Origin: Mobula hypostoma | Lineage: Eukaryota | Reading direction: 5' to 3' | Assembly: GCF_963921235.1 (NCBI RefSeq) | Contig: NC_086108.1 | Span: 13,020,001-13,084,000, forward strand | DNA: 64,000 nucleotides | Part shown: piece after piece, positions 8,170-62,210 of the stretch | Numbering within the stretch: the first letter of the stretch is position 1 | Layout: every line of letters begins with the position of its first letter | Made by a program: the position numbers and the translations under genes | Notes under the pieces: generated by a model | What the model was told of the DNA's origin: nothing | Databases searched by the model: none | The model's input: only the letters and a program-made list of their open reading frames with translations

Positions 8170-8870
8170 TTCCATTCTCCTACTGGAGAGATATACCCAA
8201 CCGCATTCTCCTATTGGACAAATGTACCCAGTTCCATTCTCCCATTGGACAGACACACCCAGTTCCGTTCTCCCATCGGAAAGATATACCCAGTTCCCTT
8301 CTCCCATTGGACAGACATACCCAGTTCCATTCTCCCATTGGGCAGATACACCCAGTTCCGTTCTCCCATTGGACAGATACACCCAGTTCCGTTCTCCCAT
8401 TGGATGGATACACCCAGTTCCATGCTCCCATTGGACAGATACACCCAGTTCCATTCTCCCATTGGACAGATACACCTAGTTCCATTCTCCCATTGGACAG
8501 ATATACCCAGTTCCAGTCTCCTACTGGAGAGATATACCCAGTTCCATTCTCCCATTGGACAGACACACCCAGTTCCGTTCTCCCATCGGAAAGATATACC
8601 CAGTTCCCTTCTCCCATTGGACAGACATACCCAGTTCCATTCTCCCATTGGGCAGATACACCCAGTTCCGTTCTCCCATTGGATGGATACACCCAGTTCC
8701 ATGCTCCCATTGTACAGATGCACCCAGCTCTATTCTCCCATTGGACAGGTACACCCAGTTCTGTTCTTCCATTGTACAGATACACCCAGCTCTATTCTCC
8801 CATTGGACAGGTACACCCAGTTCTGTTCTCCCATTGTACAGATACACGCAGCTCTATTCTCCCATTGGAC
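8170..8870. repeat. 31-bp minisatellite, about 22-23 copies, consensus CCCATTGGACAGATACACCCAGTTCCATTCT
   Basis: Read directly. Explains the overlapping repetitive ORFs on both strands. Confidence 0.95.
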
Positions 8871-8940
8871 ATATGTAGCTATTTCCATTATCTCAGTGGA
8901 CAATGAATTCTTATTGCAAACATTGTGCTGATGCCAGCAG

Positions 8941-11639: not shown

Positions 11640-13670
11640 TGAGAAGCTAAAGTCAGATGTATCAGTATTACAGTGGAGTAAAGAGAATTACAGAGGCATG
11701 AGAGAGGAGCTGGCCAAAATTGATTGGAAAAGAACACTGGCAGGGGTGACAGCAGAGTAGCAAGGGCTGGAATTTCTGGACGCAATTCAGGAGCCATAGA
11801 ATAAGGTATATACATCCCAAAGAGAAAGGCAAGATGACACAACCATGGCTAACAAGAGAAGTCAAAGCCAATATAAAAGCCAAAGAGAGGGCATAATAGA
11901 GCAAAAAGAAAAGCGGGCAATTAGAGGATTGGGAAGCTATTTAAAAACCAACAGAAGTCTTAAAGAAGCTAAAGATGGAATACAAAAGTTAGCTAGCCAG
12001 TAACATTAAAAAGGATATCAAAAGTTTCTTTAGATACATGAAGTGTAAAATAGAGGTGAGAGTGGATATCGGACCACTGGAAAATGATTCTGGGGAGGTA
12101 GTAATGGGGGGCAAGGAAATGGCAGATGAACTGAATAAGCATTTTGCATCAGTCTTCACTGTGGATGACACTAGCCGTATGGTGGAAGTTCCAGCTGTCG
12201 GATATCATGAAGTTACCATAACTAAAGAGAAGGTTCTTTGGAAACTGAAAGGTCTGAAGGTCGACAAGTCACCTGGACCAAATGGACTGCACCACAGGGT
12301 TCTGAAAGCGGTGGCTGAAGAGATTGTAGAGGCATTAGTGATGATCTTTGAAGAATCACTAGATTCTGAAATGGTTCTGGAAGACTGGAAAATTACAAAT
12401 ATCACTCCACTCTTCAAGAAGCGAGGCAGAAGAAAGGAAACTATAGGCCAGTTAGTCTGACCTCAGGGGTAGGGAAGATGTTGGAGTCGATTGTGAAGGA
12501 TGAGATCTCAGGGTACTTGGAGGCACATGATAAAATAGGCTGTAGTCAGCATGGTTTCCTCAAGGGAAAATCTTGCCTGACGAATCAGTTGGAATTCTTT
12601 GAAGAAGTAACAAGCAGGGTAGACAACGGAGAATCAGTTGATATTGGGTACTTGGATTTTCAGAAGGCCTTTGACAAGGTGCCACCCATGAGACTGCTTT
12701 ACAAGCCTATTGTATTACAGGAAAGATTCCAGCATGGATAAAGCGGTGACTGATTGGCGGGAGGCAACTTCGTTGCAAAGTTTGCAGACATTATGTAGAG
12801 AGGTGGAGGGGCGGATAATTTTGTGGCAGCAGAAAGGCTACAGAAGGACTTAAACAGATTAGGAGAATGGGCGAGGAAGTGGTAGATAGCATACAGTGTC
12901 AGGAACTGTATGGTTATGCACTTTGGTGGAAAAAATATAAGGGGTGATTATTTTCTAAAAGGAGAGAAATACAAAAAACCTAGGTGCAAAGGGCTTGGGA
13001 GTTCTTGTGCAGAAATCCCTAAAGGTTAATTTGTAGGTTGAGACTGTAGTGAGAAAGGCAATGGCAATGTCAGCATTCATTTCAAGAGGACTAGGTTATA
13101 AAAGCAAGGATGTAATGTTGAAACTTTTTAAAGCACTGGCGAGGCCTCACTTCATTTGGGCCCCTTATCTTAGAAAGGATGTGCTAAAACTGGAAAAGGT
13201 TCAAAGGATGTTCACAAAAATGATTCCAGGATTGAATGGCTTGTCATATGAAGAGTGTTTGATGGCTCTGGGCCTGTATTCACTGGAATTCAGAAGAATA
13301 AAGGGTGACCTCATTGAAATCTATCAAATGGTGAAAGGTCTTGATAGAGTGGATGTGGAGAGGATGTTCCTCTGGTGGGAGAGTATAAGACCAGAGGACA
13401 CAGCCTCAGAATGGAAGGTCATCTTTTTAGAGTGGAGATGAGGAGGAATTTCTTCCGCCAGCGAGCGGAGAATCTGTGGAATTCTGTGCCACAGGCAGCT
13501 GTGTATATTTAAGGCAAAGGTTGATAGATTCTTGATTGGTCAAGGCATGAAGAGATATGGGAAGATGGCAAGTGTTCGGGTCTGAGATGAAAATGGATCA
13601 ACCATGATGAAATGGCGGAGCAGACTCACTGGGCTAAATGGCCTAATTCTGCTCCTATATCTTATGGTCT
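11640..13670 (+). mobile_element. Degraded CR1 LINE ORF2 with 3' end
   Basis: ORFs with DKSPGP, QHGFLKGKSCLTN, LDFQKAFDKVP and LGLYSLEFRR. 3' end ...ctaattctgctcctatatcttatggtct. Confidence 0.9.
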
Positions 13671-14879
13671 TTTAATAATAGAGAAAAAACTGTGTTACGT
13701 TAAGTATATATATTAAATAAGTAATGCTAAAATCAAAATTGAAAAGTAGTGAGGGTTCAGTGTCCTTTCAGGGCAGTACAGTAGTGTAATGGTTCGCACA
13801 ACACACAGTACCAGCGACCTACGTTCCATTCCCCACCCCCCTGCTGCCTGTAAGGCGTTTGTACATTCTCACCGTGACCTCATGGGTTTCCTCCAGGTGC
13901 TCCAGTTTCCTCCCACAGTCCAAAGACATACTGGTTGGTAGGCTAATTGGTCATCAAGATTAGGCTAGGATTAAATCGAGGGATTGCCGGGTGACGTACT
14001 GGTTGGTAGGCTAATTGGTCATCGTGATTAGGCTAGGATTAAATCGAGGGATTGCTGGGTGGTGTGGCTCAAAGACCGGAAGGGCCTGTTCTTCACAGTG
14101 TCTCAATAAATAATGAAAAAAACAAATGGGATGGCAGAGGGAAAGAAGCTGTTCCTGAACCATTGTGTGTGTCTTCAGGCTGAGGAAAGCATTAAGATAA
14201 TCTTGTGTTCTGGCCAACATTCCCCAGTGGAAATAGCGACTGTCTGTAGCAATTATAAATGGGTGTAATGATTGGAGCTTCTGAAGAGAGAAGGTGAGCT
14301 TCTGGGCATGTCAGCTCAGAGCAATAGGTTCACTTTAGCTGTGCAGTGGGATGTGATTGGAGATGAGGATACCGACAGGGGCATACAGATGACTGGAGTG
14401 GAAACTGGTTTGGATGGATTGTGGAGGTGGTGGTGGTTAGAGAGGTGGAGCTTAAGCTTGGGCCCTCAAAAGAAGTGATGCAACATGGAGATTTGGTGTT
14501 GACGGAAGTGCAGTGCTGGGATGGGGCAGCGAAGGAGGAAAGCTGTTGTAATTTGAGGTTCCTGTCCAGTAACGCACTGGGAACTCCATGTTTTCCCACT
14601 GGTCGCTCTAGGAGGCCCTGGTCCGATATCCATTGCATTGATCCAAAATGCAGTGATGTTCGGGGAAGCACGTCAGCCCAAAAGCTCATCAAACTCGGCC
14701 TGATACGCAAGGGTGCCTCGAGCGTGAAACTACCCAGCCAGGTTTGTGGAGGGATATGTGAAACAACCCAGAATTAGTAGTTATTGCATTTCCTGTTGGA
14801 TGAGGAGATCAGTTTTAATCCTCATAGTGCTTAAACTTCAAATTTCAAAATAAATTTATTACCTAAATATGTATATGTT

Positions 14880-33760: not shown

Positions 33761-35189
33761 GAAGGAGAAAAAAAATCTTGAGCATTTCTTTCTCTAACTG
33801 AAGTGTCTCCTTGCTGAAGCCTCAAGATCACCACACTGACTCTGTCCAGTCAGCTGGCAGCCACTGCGACAATGACTACTGTGCTTATCGCTGCCTTTCT
33901 TTAATTTGCTCTTGTTAATCAATCACAAATGCAGATTGGTTGCTATTCAAAGCTCTTTTTTGCTGTAGTGACCAGCTGCAGGCTTTTCTATTCAGGCATT
34001 AGACCTGAGTGAAAACACCTCCTTCCCATGTCCAGATCAGTCGCTGGTCAAAGCTCTTTTTTTTTAGCAACCTATTGAACATTGAAGGGTCTCAATAGAG
34101 TGGATGTGGAGAGAATGTTTCCTCTAGTGGGAGAGTCTAAGACTAGAGGACACAGCTTCAGAATAGAGGGACGTCCATTTAGAATGGAGATGCAGAGGAA
34201 TTTTCTTAGCCAGAGAGTAGTGAATCTGTGGAATTCGCTGCCACAGGCGGCTTTGGAGGCCAAGTCATTGGGTATATTTCAGTCGGAGGTTGATAGATTC
34301 TTGATTAGTCAGGGCATGAAGGGATACAGGAAGAAGGCAGGAGACTGGGGCTGAGAGGGAAATGGATCAACCGTGATGAAACGGTGGAGCAGACTTGATG
34401 GCCTAATTCTGCTCCTATATGTTATGGTCTTAGGGTCTTAGCACAGGCTTTCTCCCGCTGGTAGCACCCTTTTGAGTTCACCTCTTACCCCTTTTTCTCC
34501 CAGCCAGCCCCACTTTTCATTTCATTGCCTCCCCCCCCATCCCCACAACAGACAACCGCTGTCCATGCATCAACACAGGGTGCTGATGTCCTTCACTTCA
34601 GCTGGAGCTCCGACCCTCCTTGCTCCATGACCCCCCCTACACCATCCTCCCCATCAGCAGAAGAGCCTTTGGAAGTATTTCACCGTACAGAGCCGTCCTG
34701 TAGGTGGAATTTGGCTGTGGAGCCCATACGTGAAACAGAAATTAACCTACTGCATGGCTTGATTTTTAACCCTTCGAGTTCTTCACAGACATTTATGGAG
34801 TAAGGCCATTTACTTTGGACTTGAAATTGTTTTTCTTTCTCTACAGATGCTCCTTGATCTTTTGGGTATTCCCAGAATTTCACTATTTCCAGTGTTGTAT
34901 TGCAGATTTCCAAAAACTCTGGTGTTCTGCATCTAAGTTACAGCAATTCCTTTCTTTCTCCTCCTAACATGCAGCTCCTCCAGACTGAGCAGCTGTGATT
35001 TACAAGCATTCACTTTCTTTCTCAGCTGATACCAGTCCTCCTCTACCTCCTCCACAGCTTAAACCATGTTTGAATTCAGACAGTTATGGTGAAAAACTCG
35101 TCTACAGATGCTGCCTCACCTGCTCAGCATCAGTCACAGTTTTAGTTCATGGCCTGGCCCAGATCTTTCTCGAAATATCTATGTCTTAT

Positions 35190-36099: not shown

Positions 36100-37640
36100 T
36101 TCTCATTGTCTTCTTTTTAATCTCTCCCCTCTCCCTTACCCCTCCACCCCAAATCACTCCCCTCCCCTACCCCCCATTCTTCCTCTTTCCTCTACTCATC
36201 ATCCCATCTCTCCTCTCCGCTTCTTTCCCCAATCATTACACTCTCCTCTTCACTCTCAAAAACCCTCTGTCCCCTATTCTCCGACTCTCCTCTCACCCTC
36301 TCCTCTCAACTTCTCCCCTCCCACTCCCCTTCCCCCTCCCCTTCCCCCTCCCCTTCTCCCTCCCCCACTCTCCCTCTCCCACTCTCTCCCTCCCCCACTC
36401 TCTCCCTCTCCCACTCTCCCTCCCCCACTCTCTCCCTCTCCCCACTCTCCCTCTCCCCACTCTCCCTCCCCCACTCTCTCCCTCCCCCACTCTCCCTCTC
36501 CCCACACTCTCCCTCTCCCCACTCTCTCCCTCCCCCACACTCTCCCTCTCCCCACTCTCCCTCCCCCACACTCTCCCTCTCTCCCTGCTCCACTCTCCCT
36601 CCCCACTCTCTCCCTCCCCCACTCTCCCTCTCCCCACTCTCCCTCTCCCCACTCTCTCCCTCCCCCACTCTCTCCCTCCCCAACTCTCTCCCTCCCCCAC
36701 ACTCTCCCTCCCCCACTCTCCCTCCTCACCCTCTCTCTCTCCCCACTCTCCCTCCCACACTCTCCCCCCAACCTCCCCCTCTCTCTCCCTCCCCACTCTC
36801 TTTCCACCTCCCCCAGTCTCTCCCTCTCCCCACTCTCCCTCCCCCACTCTCCCTCCCCACCCTCTCCCTCTCCCCACTCTCTCTCCCACACTCTCTCCCT
36901 CTCCCCACTCTCCCTCCCCTACTCTCTCCCTCCCCCACTCTCCCTCCCCTACTCTCTCCCTCCCCCTCTCTTTCTACCTCCCCCACTCTCCCCTCTTCTC
37001 TCCCCTCCCCTCCCACACTTTCTCCTCTCCCTCAACTGTCCTCCTCTCATCCTCTCCCCTTTTCTCCCACTCTCCCCTCCCTCTTCCCCACTTTTCCCTT
37101 CTCCCCTCCCCTTCTACCCCACTCTCCTCATCTCCTCTCCCATTGTCTTCACTACTTTCCCCCTTTCATCTCCACTCTCCTTCTCCCCCTCTCCCCATCT
37201 ACCCCACTTTCCCCACCTCCCACCTTCTCCCCCTCCCCTCTCCCCATCTCCTCTCACCCCTTGTCCTCTCCCTCCACCACGCTTCCCTTCTCCGTCTCAT
37301 CTCTTCTCCTCTCCCCTCTCCCTTACTCTTCCCATCTTCTCTCTCCTCCCCTATCCTTTCCCTCTCCCCCACTCTCCCCTTCTCCCTCTCCCCCATCCTC
37401 TCCCCCATCCTCTCCCTCTCCTCAATCTCCCCTTCCCCCTCTCCCCGACTCTCTCCTTCTCCCTCTCCTCAATCTCCCCTCCCCAATCTCCACTTCTCCC
37501 TCTCTTCCCCAATCTCCCCCATCCCTCTCCCCCACTCTCCCCCTCACCTCTTCCCCTCCCCTCTCCCCCACTCCTCCTCTCTTCTTCCCACCAACCCTCT
37601 CCTCTCCCCCTCCTCCCCACTTCTTCTCCTCTCCCTCTCT
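36100..37640. repeat. Polypyrimidine low-complexity tract of about 1.5 kb built from CCCCACTCTCCCT-like units
   Basis: Nearly G-free on the + strand. Continues at about 38525-38740 after a CR1 insertion. Confidence 0.95.
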
Positions 37641-38915: not shown

Positions 38916-40718
38916 GTGAGTAAGTGACTGCTGCGTGCAATGTTGCCGGGACTGTTTGGGGGTGAGAAGGACATTTATAGTTTCATGTGGTACATAGCTA
39001 GGGATCAGGCTCTCCAAAGTTCAAAGTAAACTTTATTGTCAAAGTACATATATATCACCATATACAACACTGAGATTTATTTTCCTGTGGGTATACACAG
39101 CAATTCTATGGAATAGTAACTGTAACAGGATCATTGAAAGATCAACCAGAGTGCAGAACAACAAACTGTGCAAATGCAAATATCAATAAATAGTAATAAA
39201 TAATGAGAGCGTGAGATAATGAGATAAAGAGTCCTTAAAGTGAAATTATTGGTTGTGGGACCATTTCAATGATGGGGCAAGTGACTGGAATTTTCCCACT
39301 TTATTTAAGGTTTTGGAGTAGTAACTGTTTTTGAACCTAGTGGTACGAGTCCTGAGGCTCTTGTATCTTCTACTGATGGCAGCAGGGAGAAAAGAGCATG
39401 GCCTGGGTGGTGAGGGTCTCTGATGATGGATCCTGCTTTCCTACTCAGCGTTCCATGTAGATGTGCTCAATGGGTGGGAGAGCTTTGCCCGCGATGTACT
39501 GGGCTGAATCCACAACTAGTTCCCATTGCCTGCGTTTGACCCATAACCCTAAAAACCAAGGGTTCCCAATCTGTGGTCCACATATCCCTCAGGTCATGGT
39601 ATGGGTCCATAGCTTAAAAAGGGCTGGAATTTTCTGCTCTGGACCTTGGCTATCCATGTACCTGTCCAAGTGATTTTAAAACAGTGGAAGTGTGGATGCC
39701 TCTACTACACTTTTGAGTCCTTACCCTTTTAAACCTACACTCTCTAGTATTAGACTGCCGTGCTCATGTAAAAAGACTGTTATTAGTTATCCTCCCACAA
39801 ATGAAATCTATTAGTGTTTTTCTTTACCTTATCTGCAGTGATATCTTATATATTCTTCTAATTTCCTTATTAGTGTACTTCCAGGGAAGCTCAAGAGGGC
39901 TTTAATCCACTGTTTGCTCAATATAATGAGAAATAATCTCTCGATTCTAACAGCCTCCCTTTGAAATTCATCCACTGTGGCGAAGTGTCTGCCTGAGCGG
40001 ATATACCGTGCAGTAGCATTGAGGACAAAGTAGGTTAAGTTGGGATCAGATTGACAGAGAGAAGAGAGGATGGGTGTGGGATCAATATCAAATTAAATCT
40101 AATCCAAGTTTAAATCAACCATAGATGAATACAGAGAAATGAAACAGTGTTCCTCTGGGGCCTAGATGCTGAACATACAATAAGAAAGATAATGAGCAAG
40201 CACAGAGTCACACAAAATAAAATATATTTAGCCCCAAATCCCTAAATGACATGTCCCGCAAATTGATGGTTCAGTTCTCAGCAGTCCAAAGATAACACAC
40301 GCATGCAATTTCACTGATCAAAAACTAGAGGGCAGCCCCAACCAAGCGTAGGCGCCATGCTACACTGCCTCTGGTGTGTCCTTTCCCGGACTGCAGCAGC
40401 AGGCAAGCCCGCAGCTTGAGGCCCAGTCATCATTACCACTGAGGGCACACAGCTCCCTGTCCACCTGTCACTCCACCAAACACGGGATGTTACAGATTGC
40501 TGAGGGAGATGTTACTGAGTTGAGGTGAAGGGAATTCATGCCACCTAGTAGCTACTTTGGATTAACTACAATGTGGGTACCAAGAGATGAGCCACAATGA
40601 CTAACTGCCTGAAGAGTAGTTTAGTGTTGGTTCATAACCAATGTCAGAGTGCAGTTGCAATCAGACTTGTGTCAGGTATCTAATGTTCCTGGATTGGAGA
40701 GTTTTGTGTTTTTCACAG

Positions 40719-40844
40719 ACATGGATGAATGTGGACAAAGGCCTTCACCCTGCCCCAATGGTCGATGCGAGAATGTGGTTGGCAGTTACCGTTGTGTGTG
40801 CTCCAGAGGATTTGTGGCCAATTCTCAAGGCACAGATTGTATTG
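40719..40844 (+). CDS. LTBP4: cbEGF exon A1 (DMDECGQRPSPCPNGRCENVVGSYRCVCSRGFVANSQGTDCI)
   Basis: Acceptor ttttcacag|, donor G|GTAATG. 126 bp, phase 1-1, 6 Cys, calcium-binding consensus. Confidence 0.92.
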
Positions 40845-41656: not shown

Positions 41657-41776
41657 ATATTGATGAGTGCTTGAATGAGCTCACTTGTCCAAACTCTGAG
41701 TGTGTGAATTCCATTGGATCTTTCCACTGCCTCCCCTGCTCCACAGGATACCAGATCCGGGATGGAAAGTGTACAG
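41657..41776 (+). CDS. LTBP4: cbEGF exon B1 ([40 protein letters not shown])
   Basis: Acceptor ttctttcag|, donor CAG|GTAAAA. 120 bp, phase 1-1. CxxC spacing as in recalled LTBP4 DVDECENHLACPGQECVNSPGSFQCRTCPSG. Confidence 0.92.
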
Positions 41777-46729: not shown

Positions 46730-46855
46730 ACATGGATGAATGTGGACAAAGGCCTTCACCCTGCCCCAATGGTCGATGTGAGAATGTGGTTGGCAGTTAC
46801 CGTTGTGTGTGCTCCAGAGGATTTGTGGCCAATTCTCAAGGCACAGATTGTATTG
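46730..46855 (+). CDS. LTBP4: cbEGF exon A2 (same protein as A1)
   Basis: AG/GT intact. One synonymous difference from A1 (TGC>TGT). Confidence 0.88.
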
Positions 46856-47582: not shown

Positions 47583-49349
47583 TATGGTAGTGGAGTCTAA
47601 AGTCAGAGGGCACAGCCTCAGAACAGAGGGATATCCACTTAGAATGGAGATGAAGAGGAATTCTGTAATCCAGAGAATGGTAAATCTGTGGAATACGTTG
47701 TCACAAGCAGCTGAGGAGGCCAAATCATTGGATATATTTAAGGCAGATCTTTCGCTTTGTAATCAGTCAGGGCATGAAGGGATATGGATCGAAGGTAGGA
47801 GATTGGGTCTGAGAGGAAAAAATGGATCAGCCATTATAAAACTACAAGGGAATCAATGAAAACCACCCAACTAGGGTGTTCAACCAGTGTGCAGTAGACA
47901 ACAAACTGCAAATACAAAAAGAAGAAATAATAATAATAGATAAGCACTAAATATTGAAAACATGAGATGAAGTGTGCTAGAAAGTGAGTCCATTGCCTTC
48001 AGGAACATTTCAATGACAGGGCTAGTGAAGTTGAGTGAAGTTATCACCTCTGGTTTAAGAGCCTGATGGTTAAGGGGTAGTAACTGTTCCTGAACCTGGT
48101 TGTGTAAGTCCTGAGGCTCCTGTACCACCTTCCTGATGACAGTAGTAAGAAGAGAGCATGCACTGGGTGGCACCAGTTTGGTGTCATCTACAAACGTACT
48201 AATCAGCTCACCTACAATCTCAACCAAATTGTTAATTTATATAATGAGCCACCATCAACCCAGCTCCAATCGTTGTACATTGTTGGTCACGGGTCTCCAA
48301 TCTGCAAACCAACCCTCACCCTCAAGCTCTGCCTGTTACGACAAAACCCCATTTGAATCCAATTTTCTAACGCGTCTTGTATTCTAACCTTCTTCACCAG
48401 CCTACAGACAGGACCTCGTAAAAGGCCTTGCTAAAGTCTATGTAGACAACATCCACCACACTGCTCAAGTACAACATGTTGGTCACTTCCTCATGAAAAT
48501 CTATCAGACTTCTGAAGCATGATCTCCCATTAACCATGCTGACTATCCATGATCGGTCCTTGCCTTTCCAAATGCAGCTAGCCCTCAGAATCCCTTACAG
48601 AAACTTATCCTCCAGTGGGTTCAGTGTTCACTGGCCTGTGCTTCCTTGACTGGTCCATGTAGCCCTTTTTAAATACAGTCCCGACATCAGCAATCTTCCA
48701 GTAACTCACCTGTGGCAAATGAAGATACAGAATTCACTACCATGACCCCAGCAGTTTTCTTCCTTCCCTACCAAAATAACCTAGAATACACCTGGTCATG
48801 CCCTAGGGATTAATCCACTATTATCTGCTTCAAAACCACTAATGGGAGGGCAGTCCCCAACTGTGCATGAACGCAATGCTACACCACTTCCAGTGTCTCC
48901 TGCCCTGGACTGCAGCAGCCCTAATCTCCTGACTTGTCCCTGTATCTCATCGTTCCCTGACTAATCAAGAATCTATCAACATCTGCCTTAAATATACCCA
49001 ATGACTTGACCTCCACAGTCACCTGTGGAAACAAATTCTACAGATCTGTGGCCTAGTCCTCCCTACAACCAAGGCTACACAACTCCCCCGCTGTCTGTCA
49101 TGCCACCAAACAAATTATATAACAGATTGCTGGGGGAGATGCTACTGAGTTGAGATGAAGGGAATTCATACCACCCACTAACTACTTTAGATTAACTGCA
49201 ATATGTGTACCATCAGAGGAACCACAACGTCCAACTACCTAAAGAGAAGTTTAATGTGGGTTCATAACCAATGTCAGAGTGCAGTTGCAATCAGACTTGG
49301 GTCAGGTATCTAATGTTCCCAGGATTGGAGAGTTTTGTGTTTTCCACAG

Positions 49350-49475
49350 ATATGGATGAATGTGGACAAAGGCCTCCACCCTGCCCCAATGGTCGATGCG
49401 AGAACGTAATTGGCAGTTACCGTTGTGTGTGCTCCAGAGGATTTGTGGCTAATTCTCAAGGCACAGATTGTATTG
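49350..49475 (+). CDS. LTBP4: cbEGF exon A3 (variant RPPP, ENVI)
   Basis: AG/GT intact, 126 bp, open frame, all Cys kept. Confidence 0.88.
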
Positions 49476-50359
49476 GTAATGTCAGCAGTTTCTTACGCCT
49501 CGGCCTCTCTCGATGGGATGGGTGGGGATGGATTGAGGGTGGGATGGAGGAATCCATTTGAATGTTGAAAGACCTCGACAGAGTGGATGTGGAGAGGATG
49601 TTCCTGTGAGGGTGGAATCTAAGACCAGAGAGCACAGCCTCAGAATAGAAGGACATCTATTTATAACAGAGATGTAGAGGAATTTCTTTAGCCAGAGAGA
49701 GGTAAATCTGTAGAATTAGTTGCCACAAGTGGCTGTGGAGGCCAAGTCATTGCATATATTTAAGGCAGACCTTGATAGAATCATGATTAGTCAGGGCATG
49801 AAGCGATACAGACAGAAGGCAGGAGATTGGGGCTGAGAAGGAAATATGGATCAGCCACAATAAAATGGCAGATCAGACTTGATGGGCTAAATGGCCTAAT
49901 TCTGCTCCTATATCATATGGTCTTATGGTCTTAACTGAGTTTCCAGGCAATTGTCATTCTAGCCAGTACACCGCACTAGTATCTATTCAACATCTGACCC
50001 ACAGGTTCATCACCCTGACCCTTTACAAATGAGTGAACAGCCATCTGCTCCCATGTTCCCAGCTCCTCCTCCATCCAAATTAATCACATGGAATGTGGGA
50101 GCAGACCCCATGGAGAAAGATTCATGGAGTCTGTAAGGTGACAGGACGGATAAAGAGGTTTAATTTTAAATTGAAAAATGGGTGTAATGACAGAATTAAT
50201 TGGAATGTGCTGGGAGCTGGGACAGAATTGTTAGAGTTAAAGAGGGAGGAGATGGTCACCATGAAAATGAAGGTTAAAAGCAAGAGCAGGGGTGAGGGAA
50301 TTATCAGCCATCCAGGGACAGTGATCGCCTAACTCTCCATGGATTCTGCTTTCTTTCAG

Positions 50360-50479
50360 ATATTGATGAGTGCTTGAATGAGCTCACTTGTCCAAACTCT
50401 GAGTGTGTGAATTCCATTGGATCTTTCCATTGTCTCCCCTGCCGCACAGGATACCAGATCCGGGATCGAAAGTGTACAG
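50360..50479 (+). CDS. LTBP4: cbEGF exon B2 (variant PCRTGYQIRDRKCT)
   Basis: AG/GT intact, 120 bp, open frame, all Cys kept. Confidence 0.88.
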
Positions 50480-53060
50480 GTAAAACAGTTAGCGTCTCTA
50501 ACCAGTAGAACTTTGAGCCTTGTGCACGTGGGAGTCATCAAACCTACTCAGCAAATAGAGAGAGAAGCTTCCTCTAACTGTCAATGGTTCAATTTAATGT
50601 CAGACAATGCATACAATCTGAATCAGTACTCGTCACAGGCATCCACGAAACAGAAATAAACTCAAAGAATGAATGACAGAAAACATTAGAACTCCAAAGC
50701 CCCCTCTCCCCCTCCCCCACTTGCTCCAGCAAAAACATTGACCCTGCGCCCTGAACCACCCAATTCAAAGTCCCCCAAAGTGACTTTAAGGTAAAGTCCA
50801 TCAAAAACGACAGTCCTTCCCATTCCTTCAGTATCTCAGATAGGCTCTCTCTCAAGCGGGGTTAAAGAGAAATCGCTCCTGAAACAAATGAGTGAGGGAG
50901 ACCAGCAGCTCAGTTTTGATGTCTCATCAAAAACTTCCAAGACAGACAATGCAGATTAGATATGGAGTGAATCTCCTTCTACACTATCCCATTAGACATT
51001 CCCACAGCACGGTCAACACAGACTAGATCTAAAATGAACCTCCACTGCGCTGACCCATCAAACGTTCCCATGACAGGGATAGCACAGAGCAGACAGAGAG
51101 AAAAGCTCCCTCTGCACTCTCCCATCACAGGAGGGACAAAATGAGTTAGGGATTAAATATTTTCCTTCACTATCATTTCAAGTGGTCGAGAAGCCAGATT
51201 AATTAGGAATAAATCTCCCCTTGTCATATACTGTCACAGAGCGACAACGTGAGTTGGGTATAGAGTATGTCTTCATGTTCCATTTAATATCCCACAGCAG
51301 GAACAGTGTAGATTAGTTGTGGGGCAAATCTCCATCTAAACTGCTTTGTCACACCCTCTATGGTGGTGATAGTGTACAGTAGGTACAGAGTAAATCTTTC
51401 TCTATGCTGTTTCGAAGTTCAAAGTAAATTTTACTATCAAACCACAGACGTATATGCCACCATAGATAACCGTGAGAATGATTTTGTAGTTGGCATACTC
51501 AAGAAATCTATGGAATAATAACTACAAGGGACTCAGTGAAAAACCCCCCAACTAGGGTGTTCAACCAGTGTGCAGAAAACAACAAACTGTGCAAATACAA
51601 AAAGAAGAAACAATAATAGTAAATGAATAAGCACTAAATATCGAAAACATGAGATGAAGCATGTTCGAAAATGAGTCCATTGCCTTCGGGAACATTTCAA
51701 TGACAGGGCTAGTGCAGCTGAGTGAAGTTATCACCTCTAGTTTAAGAGACTGATGGTTGAGGGGTAGTTTCTGTTCCCGAACCTGGTGGTGTAAGTCCTG
51801 AGGTTCCAGTAACTTCTTTCTGATGACAGCAGTAAGAAGAGAGCATGTACTGGGTGACACCAGTTTGATGTCATCTACAAACATACTAATCAGCTCACCT
51901 ACAATCTCAACCAAATTGTTAATTTATATAATGAGCCACCATCAACCCAGCACCAATCCCTGTTGTACATTGTTGGTCACAGGTCTCCAATCTGTAAACC
52001 AGCTCTCACACTCGCCCTCACCCTCAATCTCTGCCTCCTACCACCAAACCCTATTTGGATCCAATTTTCTAACTCACCTTGTATTATAATCTTCTTCACC
52101 AGCCTATCATACAGGACCTTGTAAAAGGCCTTGCTGAACTCCATGTAGACAACATCCACCACGCTGCTCAAGTCAATCCTGTTGGTTACTTCCTCATGAA
52201 AAATCTATCAAACTTCTGAACCATGATCTCCCATGAACCATGCTGACTATCCCTAATCAGTCCTTGCATTTACAAATGCAACTAGCTCCTAGTCCTCAAA
52301 ATCCATTCCAGTAACTTGCCCTCCAGTGAGTTCAGTGTTCACTGGGCTGTGCTTCCTTGACTAGTTCATGTAGACCTTCTTAAATACGGTCACAACATCA
52401 GCAATCTTCCAGTACCTCACCTGTGGCTAAAGAAGATACAGAAATCACTACTGCGATCCCAGTAGTTTTCATTCTTTCCTACCAAAATGACCTAGAATAC
52501 ACCTGGTCATGCCCTAGGGATTTATCCACTATTATCTGCTTCAAAACCACCAATGGGAGGACAGCCCCCAACCGTGCATGGACGCAACGCTACACCACCT
52601 CCAGTGTCTCCTTCCCTGGACTGCAGCAGCCCTAATCTCCTGACTTCTCCCTGTATCTCATCATCCCCTGACTAATCAAGAATCTATCAACATCTGCCTT
52701 AAATATACCCAATGACTTGGCCTCCACTGTCACCTGTGGAAACAAATTCTACAGATCTGTGGCCTAGTCCTCACTACAGCCAAGGCTACACAACTCCCCC
52801 GCCATCTGTCGTGCCACCAAACAAATGATATAACAGATTGCTCGGGGAGATGTTACTGAGTTGAGATGAAAGGAATTCATGCCATCCACTACCTACTGTA
52901 GATTAACTGCAATATGTGTACCATCAGGTGAGCCACAATGTCCAACTGCCTAAAGAGTAGATTAGTGTGGATTCATAACCAATGTCAGAGTGCAGTTGTA
53001 ATCAGACTTGGGTCAGGTATCTAATGTTCCCAGGATTGGAGAGTTTTGTGTTTTCCACAG

Positions 53061-53186
53061 ATATGGATGAATGTGGACAAAGACCTTCACCCTGCCCCAA
53101 TGGTCGATGCGAGAACGTGGTTGGCAGTTACCGTTGTGTGTGCTCCAGAGGATTTGTGGCTAATTCTGAAGGCACAGATTGTATTG
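53061..53186 (+). CDS. LTBP4: cbEGF exon A4 (variant NSEGTDCI)
   Basis: AG/GT intact, 126 bp, open frame. Confidence 0.88.
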
Positions 53187-54056
53187 GTAATGTCAGTGGT
53201 TTCTTACACCTCGGCATCTCTCGATGGGATGGGTGGGGATGGACTGAGGGTGGGATGGAGGAATCCATTTGAATGTTGAAAGGCCTCGACAGAGTGGATG
53301 TGGAGAGGATGTTTCCTGTGATGGTGGAATCTAAAACCAGAGAGCACAGCCTCAGAATAGAGGGACATCCATTTATAACAGAGATGAAGAAGAATTACTT
53401 TAGCCAGAGAGAGGTAAATCTGTAGAATTAGTTGCCACAGGTGGCTATGGAGGCCAAATCATTGGATATATTTAAGGCAGACATAGATAGAATTGTGATT
53501 AGTTAAGCATGAAGAGATATGGACAGAAGGCAGGAGATTGGGACTGAGAAGAAAAAATGGATCAGCTGTAATAAAATGGCGGAGCAGACTGGATGGGCTA
53601 AATGGCCTAATTCTGCTCCTATATCTTATGGTCTTAACTGAGTCTCCCAATTGCAGTCACTCCAGCCAGTACACCACCCCAGTATCTATACAGCATCTGA
53701 CCCACAGGTTCATCACCCTGACCCTTTACAAATGGGTAAACTGCCACCTTCCCCCATGTTCCCAGCTCCTCCTCCATACAAAGAATGAGAGGGATTGTGG
53801 GAGCAGGCCCCATGGAGAAAGATTCATGGAGTCTGCAAGGTGACAGGGCAGATAAAGAGGTTTAACTTTAAATTGAAAACAGGCTGTAATGGCAGAATTA
53901 AATAGAATGTGCTGGGAGCTGGGACAGAATTGTTGGAGTTGAAAATGGAGGAGATGGTCACCATGAAAGTAAAGGACCAAGAGCAGAGGTGAGGGAATTA
54001 TCAGCCATCCAGGGACAGTGATCGCCTAACACTCCATGGATTCTGCTTTCTTTCAG

Positions 54057-54176
54057 ATATTGATGAGTGCTTGAATGAGCTCACTTGTCCAAACTCTGAG
54101 TGTGTGAATTCCATTGGATCTTTCCACTGCCTCCCCTGCTCCACAGGATACCAGATCCGGGATGGAAAGTGTACAG
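54057..54176 (+). CDS. LTBP4: cbEGF exon B3 (nucleotide-identical to B1)
   Basis: AG/GT intact, 120 bp, identical to B1 by eye. Confidence 0.88.
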
Positions 54177-56116
54177 GTAAAACTGTTAGCGTCTCTAACC
54201 TGTAGCATTTAGAGTCTTGTGCACATGGGAATCATCAAACCTACTCAGCAAATACAGAGAAAAGCTTCCTCTAACTGTCAATGGTTCAATTTAATGTCGG
54301 ACAATGCATACAATCTGAATCAGTACTCGTCACAGGCATCCACGAAACAGAAATAAACCCAAAGAATGAATGACAGAAAACATTGGAACTCCAAAGCCCC
54401 CTCTCCCCTCCCCCACTTGTTCCAACAACAACATTGATCCTCCTCTCTGAACCCCCAATTCAGAGTCCCCCAAGGTGACCTCAAACTTTGTGACCTAGCA
54501 CAGAATAGACAGAGAGGAAAGCTCTCTCTTCACTCTCCCATCACTGTAGGGACAACATGAGTTAGGGATTAAATCTTTCTCTTCACTATCGTTTCAAGTG
54601 GTCCAGAAGCCAGATGAATTATGGAATAAATCTCCCTTTGTCATCAACTATCACAGGGACAATGTGAGTTGGATATAGAGTATGTCTTCATGTTCCATTG
54701 AACATCCCACAGCAGGAATAAATAAACACATAATATCAAGAACATGAGATGAAGCATATTCGAAAGTGAGTTCATTGCCTGCGGGAACATTTCAATGATA
54801 GGGCAAGTGAAGATGAGTGAAGGTATCACCTCTGGTTTAAGAGCCTGATGGTTGAGGAGTAGTAACTGTTCCTAAACCTGGTTGTGTAAGTCCTGAGGCA
54901 TCTGTAACATCTTCCTGATGATAGCAGTAAGAAGAGAGCATGTACTTGGTGACATCAGTTTGGTGTCATCTACAAGCATACTAATCAGGTCACGTACAAT
55001 CGCAACCAAATTATTAATTTATATAATGAGCCACCATGAACCAAGAACCAGTCCCTGCTGTACATTGTTGGTCACAGGTCTCCAGTCTGTAAAGCAACTC
55101 TCACAGTCACCCCTCTGCCTCGTACCACCAGATCCCTTTTGTATCCAATTTTCTAACTCACCTTGTATTCTAAACTTCCTCCGCAGCCTTATAAAAGGCT
55201 TTGCTATCATATAGGGCCTTATAAAAGGCCTTGCTAAAGTCTATGTAGACAACATCCAACACACTGCTCAAGTCAATCCTGTTGGTCACTTCCTCATGAA
55301 AAACCTATCAAACTTCTAAAGCGTGATCTCCCATGAACCCTGCTGACTATCCCTAATTGGTCCTTGCCTTTCCAAATGCAGCTAGCTCTTAGCCCTCAGA
55401 ATCCCTTACAGTAACTTTCCCTCCAGTGAAGTTTCTGTTCACTGGCATGTGCTTCCTTGGCTGGTCCATGTAGACTTTCTTAAATAAAGTCACAACATCA
55501 GCAATCTTCCAGGACCTCACCCGTGGCTAATGAAGGTACAGAAATCACTACCATAATCCCAATAGTTTTCTTCCTTCCCTACCAAAATAACCTAGAATGC
55601 AACTATTATCTGCTTCAAAACCCCCAACCGAGCATGGCTGCAATGCTACACCACCTCCAGTGTCTCCTCTCCTGGACTGCAGCAGCCCCAATCTCCTGAC
55701 TTCTCCCTGTATCTCATCATTCCCTGACTAATCAAGAATCTATCAACATCTGCCTTAAATATACCCAATGACTTGACCTCCACAGTCACCTGTGGAAACA
55801 AATTCTACAGATCTGTGGCCTAGTCCTCACTACAGCCAAGGCTACACAACTCCCCCGCTGTCTGTCATGCCACCAAACAAGTGATATAATATATTTCTGG
55901 GGGAGATGTTACTGAGTTGAGATGAAGGGAGTTCATGCCACCCACTAACTAATTTGAACTAACTACAATGTGCATACCATCAGATGAGCCACAATGACCA
56001 ACTGCCTAAAGAGCAGTTTAATATGGGTTCATAACCAATGTCAGAGTGCAGTTGCAATCAGACTTGGGTCAGGTATCTAATGTTCCCAGGATTGGAGAGT
56101 TTTGTGTTTTCCACAG

Positions 56117-56242
56117 ATATGGATGAATGTGGACAAAGACCTTCACCCTGTCCCAATGGTCGATGCGAGAACGTGGTTGGCAGTTACCGTTGTGTGTGCT
56201 CCAGAGGATTTGTGGCCAATTCTCAAGACACAGATTGTATTG
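56117..56242 (+). CDS. LTBP4: cbEGF exon A5 (variant NSQDTDCI)
   Basis: AG/GT intact, 126 bp, open frame. Confidence 0.88.
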
Positions 56243-58108
56243 GTAATGCTGACTGCATCTTATGCCTCGGCCTCTCTTGATGGGATGGGTGGGGATGGAT
56301 TGAGGGTGGGATGGAGGAATCTATTTGAATGTTGAAGGCTTCTGTAAAATGCATGTGGAGAGGATATTTCCTATGGTAGTGGATTCTAAAGTCAGAGGGC
56401 ACAGCCTCAGAATAGAGGGACATCCACTTAGAATGGAGATGAAGAGGAATTCTGTAAGCTAGAGAATGGTAAATCTGTGGAATACGTTGTCACAAGCAGC
56501 TGAGGAGGCCAAATCGTTGGATATACTTAAGGCAGATCTTTAGCTTTGTAATCAGTCAGGGCATGAAGGGATACGGACAGAAGGTAGAAGACTGGGGCTG
56601 AGAGGAAAAAATGGATCAGCCATAATAAAACTACAAGGGAATCAATGAAAACCACCCAACTAGGGTGTTCAACCAGTGTGCAAAAGACAACAAACTGTGC
56701 AATTACAGAAAGAAAAAAACAATAATAATAAATAAATAAGCACTAAATATCGAAAACATGAGATGAAGCGTGCTAGAAAGTGAGTACATTGCCTGCAGGA
56801 ACATTTCAATGACAGGGCTAGTGAAGTTCAGTGAAGTTATCACTTCTGGTTTAAGAGCCTGATGGTAACTGTTCCTGAACCTGGTGGTGTAAGTCCTGAG
56901 GTTCCAGTAACTTCATGTACTGGATGACACCAGTTTGGTGTTATCTACAAACATAGTAATCAGCTCACCTACAATCTCAACCAAATTGTTAATTTATATA
57001 ATGAGCCAGCATCAACCCAGCACCAGTCCCTGCTGTACATTGTTGGTCACAGGTCTCCAATCTGTAAACCAATTCTCATGCTCACCCTCTGCCTCCTAAC
57101 ACTAAACCCATTTTGTACCCAATTTTCTAACTCACCTTGTATTCTAACCTTCTTCACCAGCCTACAGACAGGACCTTGTAAAAGGCCTTGCTAAAGTCTA
57201 TGTAGACAACATCCACCACACTGCTCAAGTACAACATGTTGGTCACTTCCTCATGAAAATCTATCAGACTTCTGAAGCATGATCTCCCATTAACCATGCT
57301 GACTATCCATGATCGGTCCTTGCCTTTCCAAATGCAACTAGCCCTCAGAATTCCTTACAGAAACTTATCCTCCAGTGGGTTCAGTGTTCACTGGCCTGTG
57401 CTTCCTTGACTGGTCCATGTAGCCCTTCTTAAATACAGTCCCGACATCAGCAATCTTCCAGTAACTCACCTGTGGCAAATGAAGATACAGAATTCACTAC
57501 CATGACCCCAGCAGTTTTCTTCCTTCCCTACGAAAATGACCTAGAATACACCTGGTCATGCCCTAGGGATTAATCCACTATTATCTGCTTCAAAACCACT
57601 AATGGGAGGGCAGTCCCCAACTGTGCATGAACGCAATGCTACACCACTTCCAGTGTCTCCTCCCCTGGACTGCAGCAGCCCTAATCTCCTGACTTGTCCC
57701 TGTATCTCATCGTTCCCTGACTAATCAAGAATCTATCAACATCTGCCTTAATTTACCCAATTACTTGGCCGCTACAGTCACCTGTGGCAACTAATTCTAC
57801 AGATCTGTGGCCTAGTCCTCACTACAATCAAGGCCACACAACTCCCACGCCGTCTGTCGTGCCACCAAACAAATGATATAACAGATTGCTGGGGGAGATG
57901 TTACTGAGTTGAGATGAAGGGAATTCTTGCCACTCACTAACTACTCTGGATTAACTGCAATATGTGTACCATCAGATGAGCCACAATGTCCATCTGCCTA
58001 AAGAGAAGTTTAATGTGGGTTCATAACCAATGTCAGAGTGCAGTTGCAATCAGACTTGGGTCGGGTATCTAATGTTCCCAGGATTGGAGAGTTTTGTGTT
58101 TTCCACAG

Positions 58109-58234
58109 ATATGGATGAATGTGAACAAAGGCCTTCACCCTGCCCCAATGGTCGATGCGAGAACGTGGTTGGCAGTTACCGTTGTGTGTGCTCCAGAGGA
58201 TTTGTGGCTAATTCTCAAGGCACAGATTGCATTG
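58109..58234 (+). CDS. LTBP4: cbEGF exon A6 (variant DMDECEQR)
   Basis: AG/GT intact, 126 bp, open frame. Confidence 0.88.
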
Positions 58235-59111
58235 GTAATGTCAGCAGTTTCTTACACCTCGGTCTCTCTCGATGGGATGGGTGGGGATGGATTGAGGGTG
58301 GGATGGGGGAATCCATTTGAATGTTGAAAGGCCTCGACAGGGTGGATGTGGAGAGGATGTTTCCTATGATGGTGGAATCTAAGCCTCAGAATAGAGGGAC
58401 ATCTATTTATAACAGAGATGAAGAGGAATTTCTTTAGCCAGAGAGAGTTAAGTCTGTAGAATTAGTTGCCACAAGTGGCTGTGGAGGCCAAGTCATTCGA
58501 TATATTCAAGGCAGAAGTTGATAGAATTGTGATTAGTCAGGGCATGAAGAGATACTGATAGAAAGCAGGAGACTGGGGCTGAGAAGAAAAAATGGATCAG
58601 CCACAAGAAAATGGCAGATCGGACTCGATGGGCTAAATGGCCTAATTCTGCTCCTATATCATATGGTCTTATGGTCTTAGCTGAGTCTCCAGGCAATTGT
58701 AGTCATTCTAGCCAGTACACCGCCCCAGTATCTATCCAACATCTGACCCACAGGTTCATCACCCTGACCCTCTACAAATGAGTGAACAGCCATCTGCTCC
58801 CATGTTCCCAGCTGCTCCTCCTCCATCCAAATTAATCACACGGAATGTGGGAGCAGACCCCATGGAGAAAGATTCATGGAGTCTGTAAGGTGACAGGACA
58901 GATAAAGAGGTTTAGTTTTAAATTGAAGACAGGCTGTAATGGCAGAATTAATTAGAATGTGCATGGAGCTGGGACAGAATTGTTGGAGTTAAAGAGGGAG
59001 AAGATGGTCACCATGAAATTAAAGTTTAAAACCAAGAGCAGAGGTGAGGGAATTATCAGCCATCCAGGGACAGTGATCTCCTAACACTCCATGGATTCTG
59101 CTTTCTTTCAG

Positions 59112-59231
59112 ATATTGATGAGTGCTTGAATGAGCTCACTTGTCCAAACTCTGAGTGTGTGAATTCCATTGGATCTTATCACTGCCTCCCCTGCTCCACA
59201 GGATACCAGATCCGGGATGGAAAGTGTACAG
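59112..59231 (+). CDS. LTBP4: cbEGF exon B4 (variant GSYHC)
   Basis: AG/GT intact, 120 bp. The F>Y change keeps the consensus aromatic residue. Confidence 0.88.
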
Positions 59232-60659
59232 GTAAAACAGTTAGTGCCTCTAACCTGTAGCATTTAGAGTCTTGTGCACATGGGAATCATCAAACCTACT
59301 CAGCAAATACAGAGAAAAGCTTTCTCTAACTGTCAATGGTTCAATTTAATGGCGGACAATGCATACAATCTGAATCAGAACTCTTCACAGACATCCCCAA
59401 AACAGAAAGAAAACCCAAAGAATGAATGACAGAAAACTTTAGAACTCCAAAGCCCCCTCTCCCCTCCCCCACTTGCTCCAAGATCCTCCTCTCTGAACCC
59501 CCAATTCAGAGTCCCCCAAAGTGACCTCGAACTTTCTGACCTAGCACAGAGTAGACAGAGAGGAAAGCTCTCTCTGCAATCTCCCATCACTGTAGGGACA
59601 ACATGAGTTAGGGATTAAATATTTTTCTTCACTATCATTTCAAGTGGTCCAGAAGCCAGATGAATTATGGAATAAATCTCCCTTTGTCATCTACTATCAC
59701 AGGGACAACGTGAGTTGGGTATAGAGTATGTCTTCATGTTCCATTGAACATCCCACAGCAGGAACAGTGTAGATTAGTTGTGGTGCAAATCTCCATCTAA
59801 ACTGTTTTGTTACACCCACTTTGGTAGTGATATTGTCGAGTAGGTACAGAGAAAATCTTGCTCCATACTCTTTGGAAGTTCAAAGTAAATTTTATTATCA
59901 AACCTCATATATGTCACCCTGAGAATCATTTTGTAGTGGGCATACTCAAGAAATCTATGGAATAATAACTACAAGGGACTCAGTGAAAAACCCCCCAACT
60001 AGGGTGTTCAACCAGTGTGCAGAAAACAACAAACTGTGCAAATACAAAAAGAAGAAACAATAATAATAAATAAATAAGCAATAAATATCGGCAACATGAG
60101 ATGAAGCGTGTTCAAAAGTGAGTCCATTGCCTGCGGGAACATTTCAATGACAGGGCTAGTGAAGTTATCACCTCTGGTTTAAGAGCCTGATGGTTGAGGG
60201 GTAGTTTCTGTTCCTGAACCTGGTGGTGTAAGTCCTGAGGCTCCTGTACTTTCTTCCTGATGACAGCAGTAAGAAGAGAGCATGCGCTGGGTGACACCAG
60301 TTTGGTGTCATCTACAAACATACTAATCAGGTTATCTGCAATCTCAACCAAATTGTTAATTTATACAATGAGACACCATGAACCCAGCACCAAATCCTGC
60401 TGTACTTTGTTGGTCACAGGTCTCCAATCTGTAAACCAACCGTCACCCTCACCCTCTGCCTCTTACCACCAACCCATCATACTGGTCATGCCCAGGGATT
60501 TATGCACTATTATGTGCTTCAAGACCACCAACTGGAGGGCAGCCCCCAACCAAGCAAGGACTCACTACACCACCTCCAGTGTCTCCTCTCCTGGACTGCA
60601 GCAGCAGGGAACCCCACAGTTGTCTTGTCTTGTCCATACTGCACCAACCGCAGCCGCTG

Positions 60660-60805
60660 GGCTATAAACGTGCAGGAGCAATGTGTGGTTAAGTACCTTG
60701 CTCAAGGACACAACACGCTGTCTCCAAATGCAATTCTCTCCTCAGCTGCAGCTTGAACTCACGACCTTCAGATCACTAGTCCAACGCCTCAACCACTTCG
60801 CCATG
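60660..60805 (-). mobile_element. tRNA-derived SINE head, present only in the B4-A7 intron
   Basis: Minus strand reads tggcgaagtgg (A-box-like), gagttcaagc (B-box-like), then gtgtccttgagcaaggtacttaa. Confidence 0.65.
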
Positions 60806-61105: not shown

Positions 61106-61231
61106 ATATGGATGAATGTGGACAAAGGCCTTCACCCTGCCCCAATGGTCGATGCGAGAACGTGGTTGGCAGTTACCGTTGTGTGTGCTCCAGAGGATTT
61201 GTGGCCAATTCTCAAGGCACAGATTGTACTG
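61106..61231 (+). CDS. LTBP4: cbEGF exon A7 (variant GTDCT)
   Basis: AG/GT intact, 126 bp, open frame. Confidence 0.88.
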
Positions 61232-62090: not shown

Positions 62091-62210
62091 ATATTGATGA
62101 GTGCTTGGACGAGCTCACTTGTCCAAACTCTGAGTGTGTGAATTCCATTGGATCTTTCCACTGCCTCCCCTGCCCCACAGGATACCAGATCCGGGATCGA
62201 AAGTGTACAG
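62091..62210 (+). CDS. LTBP4: cbEGF exon B5 (variant CLDEL...PCPTGYQIRDRKCT)
   Basis: AG/GT intact, 120 bp, open frame. Confidence 0.88.

Follow-up and report, generated by a model that had tools for sequence, protein, structure and literature searches.

Are the inverted repeats that flank individual exons of a tandem array a device for choosing among those exons, or a residue of the way in which the array was built? The question is raised by a 64,000-nucleotide stretch of the devil ray Mobula hypostoma (contig NC_086108.1, positions 13,020,001 to 13,084,000; hereafter the window), in which part of a gene lies on the plus strand, its exons encoding TB and calcium-binding epidermal growth factor (cbEGF) modules. 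Seven A-type and five B-type exons form an array in this gene, and four of them, A3 to A6, lie between oppositely oriented pieces of a long interspersed nuclear element (LINE). A first-pass annotation proposed that competing RNA pairings between these pieces control exon skipping or circularisation. We favor another reading, to which we give a probability of roughly 0.7: the four inverted repeats are one antisense LINE fragment copied together with the exon units, likely an unselected by-product, and the exons are mostly included in the transcript.

Origin of the four brackets

The antisense arms (a3 to a6) are 129–130 bp long and each ends 304 bp before its exon; their sense partners start ∼230 bp behind the exon (Table 1). 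The antisense pieces facing sense pieces lie within 3 bp of their first-pass coordinates. A sense LINE 3′ end is present behind the exon in every A unit, and no antisense piece was found upstream of the exon in units A1, A2, and A7, an absence that had been noted before and is borne out by the unit comparison. In A3 to A6, opposite-facing copies of the repeat occupy both flanking introns, the geometry of a loop-out system.

All four brackets are real, but they amount to one insertion rather than four independent cases. The four arms have identical left and right junctions, are 91.5%–97.7% identical to one another, and form one clade (support 100/95). The identical junctions rule out four independent insertions, and together with the single clade they indicate one insertion that was copied by duplication. 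Duplicated blocks of 2–3 kb, with 85%–92% identity, link the array units; apart from the insertion point, no block boundaries centered on the arms were found. Unit A1 represents the empty site, with ∼16 bp standing where the arm sits in A3 to A6. Almost at the arm site of unit A7 we note a different interspersed repeat of ∼190 bp (60617–60803).

The arm is an internal piece of its element: distant copies continue for ∼90 bp into a 3′ tail that the arm lacks, and the junction comparison of the units revealed no target-site duplication. Ordinary retrotransposition of the arm is therefore unlikely, and since the 3′ tail is missing and ∼16 bp were replaced, the arm probably entered by a repair-type (templated) insertion. 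We can thus sketch a putative history in which a sense LINE copy would have been inserted before the array expanded, the antisense 130-bp piece would have entered one unit by such a repair event, and it would then have spread by unequal crossing-over and gene conversion. For the pre-mRNA, we would predict imperfect stems that form transiently, a degree of A-to-I editing within the introns, and no more than a little in-frame skipping or circle formation, which the modular cbEGF rod would tolerate.

A long copy at 11675–13671 carries an RVT_1 domain (E = 4e-8) and ends in the arm family, which identifies that family, at the level of sequence similarity, as the 3′ end of a reverse-transcriptase element. 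The family is probably CR1-type, the label of the first-pass annotation, which agrees with the ORF2 end; the label does not separate CR1 proper from L2 or Rex. CR1-group elements make up 22%–34% of shark and ray genomes (PMC13343379). A search of the 3.5-Gb genome with a5 gave 4939 first-look candidates for the arm family. Among the 40 scored, 36 lie outside the window and are 88%–92% identical to a5, compared with 86.9% for its closest local partner.

That distant copies match the arm better than local partners do leaves unsupported the earlier suggestion that the antisense arms arose as a local inverted copy. The suggestion drew on the variant tctgtAgaatt, shared by antisense arms and the sense pieces after A3, A4, and A6. 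The sharing is real, but it is no mark of a local copy, since the variant also occurs in two of eight distant copies and in ∼6% of 36 informative background copies. Of five rare variants that the A3, A4, and A6 sense arms have in common, one is present in all antisense arms and a second in a6 only. The tree sets the antisense group apart from the A3/A4/A6 sense group with weak support, and their union is not rejected (approximately unbiased test, p-AU = 0.43), so that a local inverted copy is unsupported although not formally rejected. Arm a6 has a cluster of eight changes (57750–57800), two of which match the sense arms of A3, A4, and A6; this match is what a brief switch of template from one inverted arm to the other would leave, and a local sequence error is also possible. 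A known structured RNA can be set aside as the identity of these elements, with zero Rfam matches across 40000–64000.

Predicted pairing and the splicing record

The predicted duplex energies of the own pairs are −173, −156, −126, and −164 kcal/mol for a3 to a6, compared with −48 ± 7 for 50 shuffles and −256 for a perfect duplex. The duplex check that the first-pass annotation had called for thus indicates pairing beyond chance. Folding of the A3 and A5 regions yields a long stem (z = −10.8 and −4.4, respectively), and the folds of these two regions together with the duplex energies of all four predict a stable stem across the exon. The own pairs contain 20–33 non-Watson-Crick positions, and their longest perfect runs are 11–21 bp.

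It had been proposed that any antisense arm could pair with any sense arm, and the predictions agree: there are many near-equal registers, with six nested pairings falling within 14 kcal/mol under a rough loop penalty. For arms a4 and a5, the stronger predicted partner is the upstream sense arm, transcribed before them, and this pairing would loop out B2 and B3 instead of A exons. These sense-then-antisense brackets (49706–52756, 86%; 53418–55812, 81.5%) are stronger than the A4 and A5 pairs. As a separate observation, B exons are the exons most often skipped in stingray models. An unrelated copy at 34224 is the best partner for all four arms (−173 to −190 kcal/mol), about level with the best array partner. 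Predicted accessibility of the 3′ splice site is 0.35–0.38 in units with arms and 0.38–0.39 at A1 and A7; that of the 5′ splice site is similar with or without arms, except at A4, which is more open.

We observe no sign of selection on the pairing. Within the intron, variability is highest in the sense arm (36 of 127 columns, vs. 217 of 1112 in the upstream intron, P = 0.027), and among A3, A4, and A6 it varies at 21 of 129 columns, compared with 10 of 131 in the unpaired part of the same element (P = 0.036). The own pairs have 23 G-U and 31 A-C transition positions, that is, no excess of G-U. Across the pairing energies of all arms, none clearly favors its own sense partner, and conserved pairing with compensatory change was not found in a comparison that covered paralogous copies only.

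Six sequencing runs bear on splicing; all consist of assembled contigs, their RNA status is guessed, and five were compared with the locus. In the A1–B1 stretch, three of four runs have contigs over both exon types but over no unique intron; the fourth, X4, has no exon cover and weighs neither way. The joint depths in runs X2, X1, and X5 are 16, 80, and 13 for A>B (GT..AG), 7, 80, and 19 for B>A, and 9, 42, and 7 for A>A. Because a transcript that keeps every exon would give all three joints, each of them is expected; a colinear transcript predicts A>B, B>A, and A>A in the ratio 5:4:2. The go-back joints A>A and B>A are also normal linear joints of the array and are thus no evidence of circles. 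Two runs contain a B>A contig whose A part differs from A1 at four positions, including one private to A5, and thus has the A5 pattern. In X5, the B part of the A5-type contig has three differences, the same number as B3 of a related model. Since the A5-pattern contig is joined to a B exon, the bracketed A5-type exon is likely spliced in, in order. No B>B joint, which would be diagnostic for A4 skipped alone, is among the seven joint entries listed from these contigs, which drop rare forms. Counts of A-to-G differences in the arms (A>G at 8–10 places, T>C at 11–13) come from contigs swamped by other genomic copies and carry no weight as to editing.

The gene models agree with this picture. In a cluster of 16 models, of which 15 are listed, all four devil-ray models listed keep the 12 exons, which lends no support to the earlier idea of a length-tunable protein produced by the arms. 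Mutually exclusive use of the exons was not seen: the A>A, A>B, and B>A joints occur in three of the four runs, and the models include all exons.

The strongest alternative holds that the stems, although accidental, measurably skip A3 to A6, B2/B3, or whole blocks in frame and give some circles, with no regulated choice. We judge this unlikely. Apart from the predicted stems and near-equal registers, it draws on the phase of the exons, all 1-1 as first reported, so that every skip would stay in frame. The 75%–86% complementarity resembles the 228 of 297 positions of the TBXT pair (PMC10901737), and in another study deletion of Alu arms changed exon inclusion by ∼1% to >40% (PMC13019944); a further source likewise links Alu duplexes to exon skipping (10.1101/2025.03.07.642063). 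The A>A depth is also 0.53–0.56 of the A>B depth, compared with 0.4 expected under full inclusion, although these contig depths are crude. Against it stand the shortness of the arms, just 130 bp with no perfect run beyond 11–21 bp and 20–33 imperfect positions, the lack of a B>B joint among those listed, devil-ray models without a skip inside the array, and an A5-type exon depth near that of a single-copy exon (37 vs. 25 in X1; a weak indication). Some leaky in-frame skipping is possible. Of the original claim that competing pairings control skipping, then, the many registers, the in-frame skips, and the precedent of TBXT, in which a 77%-identical inverted pair suffices for exon skipping (PMC10901737), hold up, but selection on the pairing is unsupported.

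Going further, one could suppose that a single LINE fragment, multiplied by duplication, sets the number of cbEGF modules by means of competing stems, a length dial that we find improbable. Still less plausible is some other role for the arm, kept as a splicing-factor site that aids exon definition or as a DNA hairpin that promotes rearrangement of the array: the low variability of the arm and of ∼30 bp of flank on each side, and the two a6 changes that match sense arms, as an inverted-arm template switch would give, speak for it, but A1, A2, and A7 are intact without an arm, block boundaries are not centered on the arms, quiet patches occur elsewhere, and the array has expanded in other lineages as well. 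A selected switch of the docking/selector kind known from Dscam, in which alternative pairings pick an exon block, is barely credible and largely refuted by the co-inclusion of the exons (A>A, B>A, and A>B joints), which are spliced to one another rather than being mutually exclusive as the first-pass comparison with Dscam implied; in its favor are the proposal that competing structures can arise when stem arms are duplicated (PMC6071210) and the low variability of the antisense arm, but there is no single docking site (four antisense arms face seven or more sense partners within or next to the array), the partner arm shows no conservation, neither partner preference nor wobble excess is seen, and the elements are fragments of a repeat of which the genome contains thousands of similar pieces.

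How unusual is the bracketing? If 100 paired bases at 72% identity are set as the minimum for a bracket, none of 119 control EGF exons at four loci is bracketed within 0.5 or 1 kb, none of 118 within 2 kb, and one of 116 within 3 kb; these loci are poorer in the repeat by a factor of 2–11 (0.13–0.69 vs. 1.48 copies per 10 kb). Non-array exon pieces of the same gene (21 found by tblastn and one from RNA, a set that may miss exons) are bracketed in 0 of 22 cases within 2 kb, 2 of 22 within 3 kb, and 11 of 22 within 5 kb. When the flanks are sampled at even spacing, brackets surround 6 of 1191 spots (0.5%) at 0.5 kb, 26 of 1181 at 1 kb, and 91 of 1161 at 2 kb. Tight bracketing, with 0 of 141 control exons within 2 kb, is therefore uncommon per exon, contrary to our prior expectation that it would be common. 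The gene contains 46 inverted matches separated by <5 kb, and the best pair of the array takes 16th place among them. Two side observations belong here. At control loci on C59, C73, and C63, 0 of 118 EGF exons but 2%–3% of evenly spaced spots are bracketed at 2 kb, which hints, if weakly, at avoidance of tight inverted pairs next to exons. At window-relative 111579–122735, a TB-domain exon (120093) is surrounded by inverted LINE pairs that are much longer (up to 1.3 kb, 77%) and are the strongest predicted double-stranded RNA in the gene.

Several observations weigh against an unselected by-product with mostly included exons. Ordinary exons seldom show the bracket geometry, and the arms are at a short distance from the exon, the zone in which, by analogy, enrichment of inverted Alu pairs at skipped exons is highest (PMC13019944). 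Compared with the upstream intron, the antisense arm varies less (12 of 129 vs. 217 of 1112 columns, P = 0.004), the more so among A3 to A5 (6 of 129, P = 3e-5). In one stingray genus, five of nine listed models leave out B, AB, or five A exons while keeping the frame. The contigs that make up the RNA evidence drop rare isoforms, and their variants differ from the assembly, so that arms in those animals are not established; moreover, skipping of A3, A5, or A6 singly gives colinear-looking joints. Some of these points admit other explanations. The quietness of the antisense arm is not significant without A5 (11 of 129 vs. 149 of 1156, P = 0.20), the quiet zone reaches ∼30 bp past the arm on either side, and 130-column windows with one and four differences also occur in the non-arm intron; such quiet windows are what gene conversion would give. 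The stingray skips may reflect reads mis-mapped on near-identical exons. A configuration with a frequency of 0.5% that arose once among the very many exons of a genome calls for no particular explanation.

The LTBP4 array and its relatives

The TB and cbEGF architecture and the names of the best protein matches, LTBP4 in most cases, identify the gene by similarity as LTBP4; two ray models, P0011 and P0019, carry the source label LTBP1-like. The 12 array exons, in the order A1-B1-A2-A3-B2-A4-B3-A5-A6-B4-A7-B5, translate letter for letter to P0017, a devil-ray model with the source name LTBP4-like. All seven A exons (126 bp) and five B exons (120 bp) are open, with AG/GT ends and phase 1-1, and the A type is a cbEGF module (Pfam EGF_CA). 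A genome search returned the same seven A exons and no further close copy. Copies can be told apart by 14 variant columns in A exons and nine in B exons. The open frames and the ratios of nonsynonymous to synonymous change (pN/pS = 0.15 in A and 0.41 in B exons) rule out pseudo-exons. An assembly artefact is ruled out by introns that differ by 8%–20% between units, by copy-specific variants in RNA, and by a second devil-ray model with identical order.

Table 1. Exons of the array, antisense and sense arms, and the empty site, in window positions
Feature	Position	Strand	Remarks
Empty site before A1	40401–40417		∼16 bp where A3–A6 carry the arm
Exon A1, no arm	40719–40844	+	AG/GT ends, phase 1-1
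Exon B1	41657–41776	+	AG/GT ends, phase 1-1
Exon A2, no arm	46730–46855	+	AG/GT ends, phase 1-1
Antisense arm a3	48916–49045	−	LINE (CR1-type), upstream of A3
Exon A3, cbEGF, 126 bp	49350–49475	+	Phase 1-1, EGF_CA for A type
Sense LINE 3′ end behind A3	49561–49931	+	Pairing part sA3 = 49706–49835, 84.6% to a3
Exon B2, cbEGF, 120 bp	50360–50479	+	Bracketed by sA3 (sense) and a4 (antisense) at 2.8 kb, 86%
Antisense arm a4	52627–52756	−	
Exon A4	53061–53186	+	AG/GT ends, phase 1-1
Sense pairing part sA4	53418–53546	+	80.8% to a4
Exon B3	54057–54176	+	Bracketed by sA4 and a5 at 2.1 kb, 81.5%
Antisense arm a5	55683–55812	−	
Exon A5	56117–56242	+	Variant pattern found joined to a B exon in spliced RNA contigs
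Sense pairing part sA5	56473–56600	+	74.6% to a5; A2/A7-type lineage in tree
Antisense arm a6	57676–57804	−	With eight-change cluster
Exon A6	58109–58234	+	AG/GT ends, phase 1-1
Sense pairing part sA6	58452–58581	+	80.8% to a6
Exon B4	59112–59231	+	Translation match to P0017
Exon A7, no arm	61106–61231	+	Different ∼190-bp insert near arm site
Exon B5, last of the array	62091–62210	+	Translation match

The 90 intron bases before each A exon (e.g., 49260–49349) are 97%–98% identical among copies, above the identity of the exons' synonymous sites; they may represent either a conserved splice-control region or an exon-centered conversion tract. Elsewhere, introns of the gene contain a minisatellite of 31-bp period and a long pyrimidine-rich tract (8170–8902 and 36122–37640).

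In two stingray genera the array reads AB-AAAAA-AB-AB-AB, while sawfish P0011 and model P0152 have a single A-B pair. Further protein searches gave mostly fibrillins, plus P0152 as one close relative. The A-type modules number 13 in coelacanth, and A/B runs of their own are also found in eels, paddlefish, and a mormyrid. Copies of the A/B pair share species-specific residues (P0001, P0016, P0019, P0045, P0031, P0111, P0113, and P0118; the array here, 40719–62210). To judge from these sequences, the rays, the coelacanth, the eels, the paddlefish, and the mormyrid each expanded the LTBP4 A/B pair on their own. The expansions in other fishes indicate that pair expansion is recurrent, and older than or independent of the arm arrangement. 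Human LTBP4 has isoforms that lack EGF exons.

A second duplication lies downstream in the gene (window-relative 90892 and 95096; ∼26–35 kb and more past the window), where one cbEGF exon is doubled in stingrays and devil rays and a two-exon pair is doubled in sawfish P0011. We found no paper on LTBP4 exon-pair expansion or on this locus in a literature search that left subscription journals outside its scope; “LTBP” is absent from the main text of a devil-ray genome preprint, whose supplements could bear on the locus.

Comparison with known systems

The bracketing is real, uncommon in geometry, single in origin, and of an already known kind. Duplication has here turned two repeat insertions into four hairpins around exons, a tidy case but of an ordinary sort for a genome rich in repeats. 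It also offers a ready-made experiment: a single transcript combines four near-identical exons that have arms with three that lack them, a contrast that would reveal the effect of an imperfect 130-bp inverted pair on splicing. If module number were tuned in this way, a transposon accident would be linked to the length of a matrix protein, in a protein whose compact-to-extended change matters for elastic fibers (PMC11960800), and the length dial would be a young natural example of competing structures born by duplication in an elastic-fiber scaffold protein. The repeated expansion of the LTBP4 exon pair in fishes may be more interesting than the arms.

The gene shares with LTBP4 as described in the literature (PMC4381339) its TB domains and central cbEGF rod; it differs in the expansion of one ancestral A-B pair, single in sawfish P0011 and in P0152, to seven A and five B exons. 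The nearest parallel to the brackets is the AluY/AluSx1 pair of TBXT, where, as here, an older copy and a later opposite-facing copy bracket an in-frame exon with ∼75%–85% complementarity. Here, however, the copies are LINE 3′ fragments of 130 bp instead of ∼300 and the pair was multiplied by exon duplication; of the two systems, TBXT is the one in which skipping has been demonstrated. The array likewise resembles the repeat-driven back-splicing described by Liang and Wilusz (PMC4201285), in which short imperfect intronic repeats flank exons. Hairpin stability was a poor predictor in that study; in the array, circles are no more than a prediction, and the near-identical exons make a back-splice joint look linear. 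Chicken CR1 3′ fragments have been described as SINE-like ADAR substrates that form double-stranded RNA within 2 kb, with a 65% identity criterion that the array pairs exceed, and hyper-editing was reported in elephant shark (PMC5625713); the likeness is one of predicted pairing. As in competing structures born by duplication (PMC6071210), exon and stem arms were duplicated together and pairing is many-to-many. The arrangement differs from the docking and selector sequences of Dscam in that both arms were duplicated, no single docking site exists, the exons are co-included, and the pairing is unconserved.

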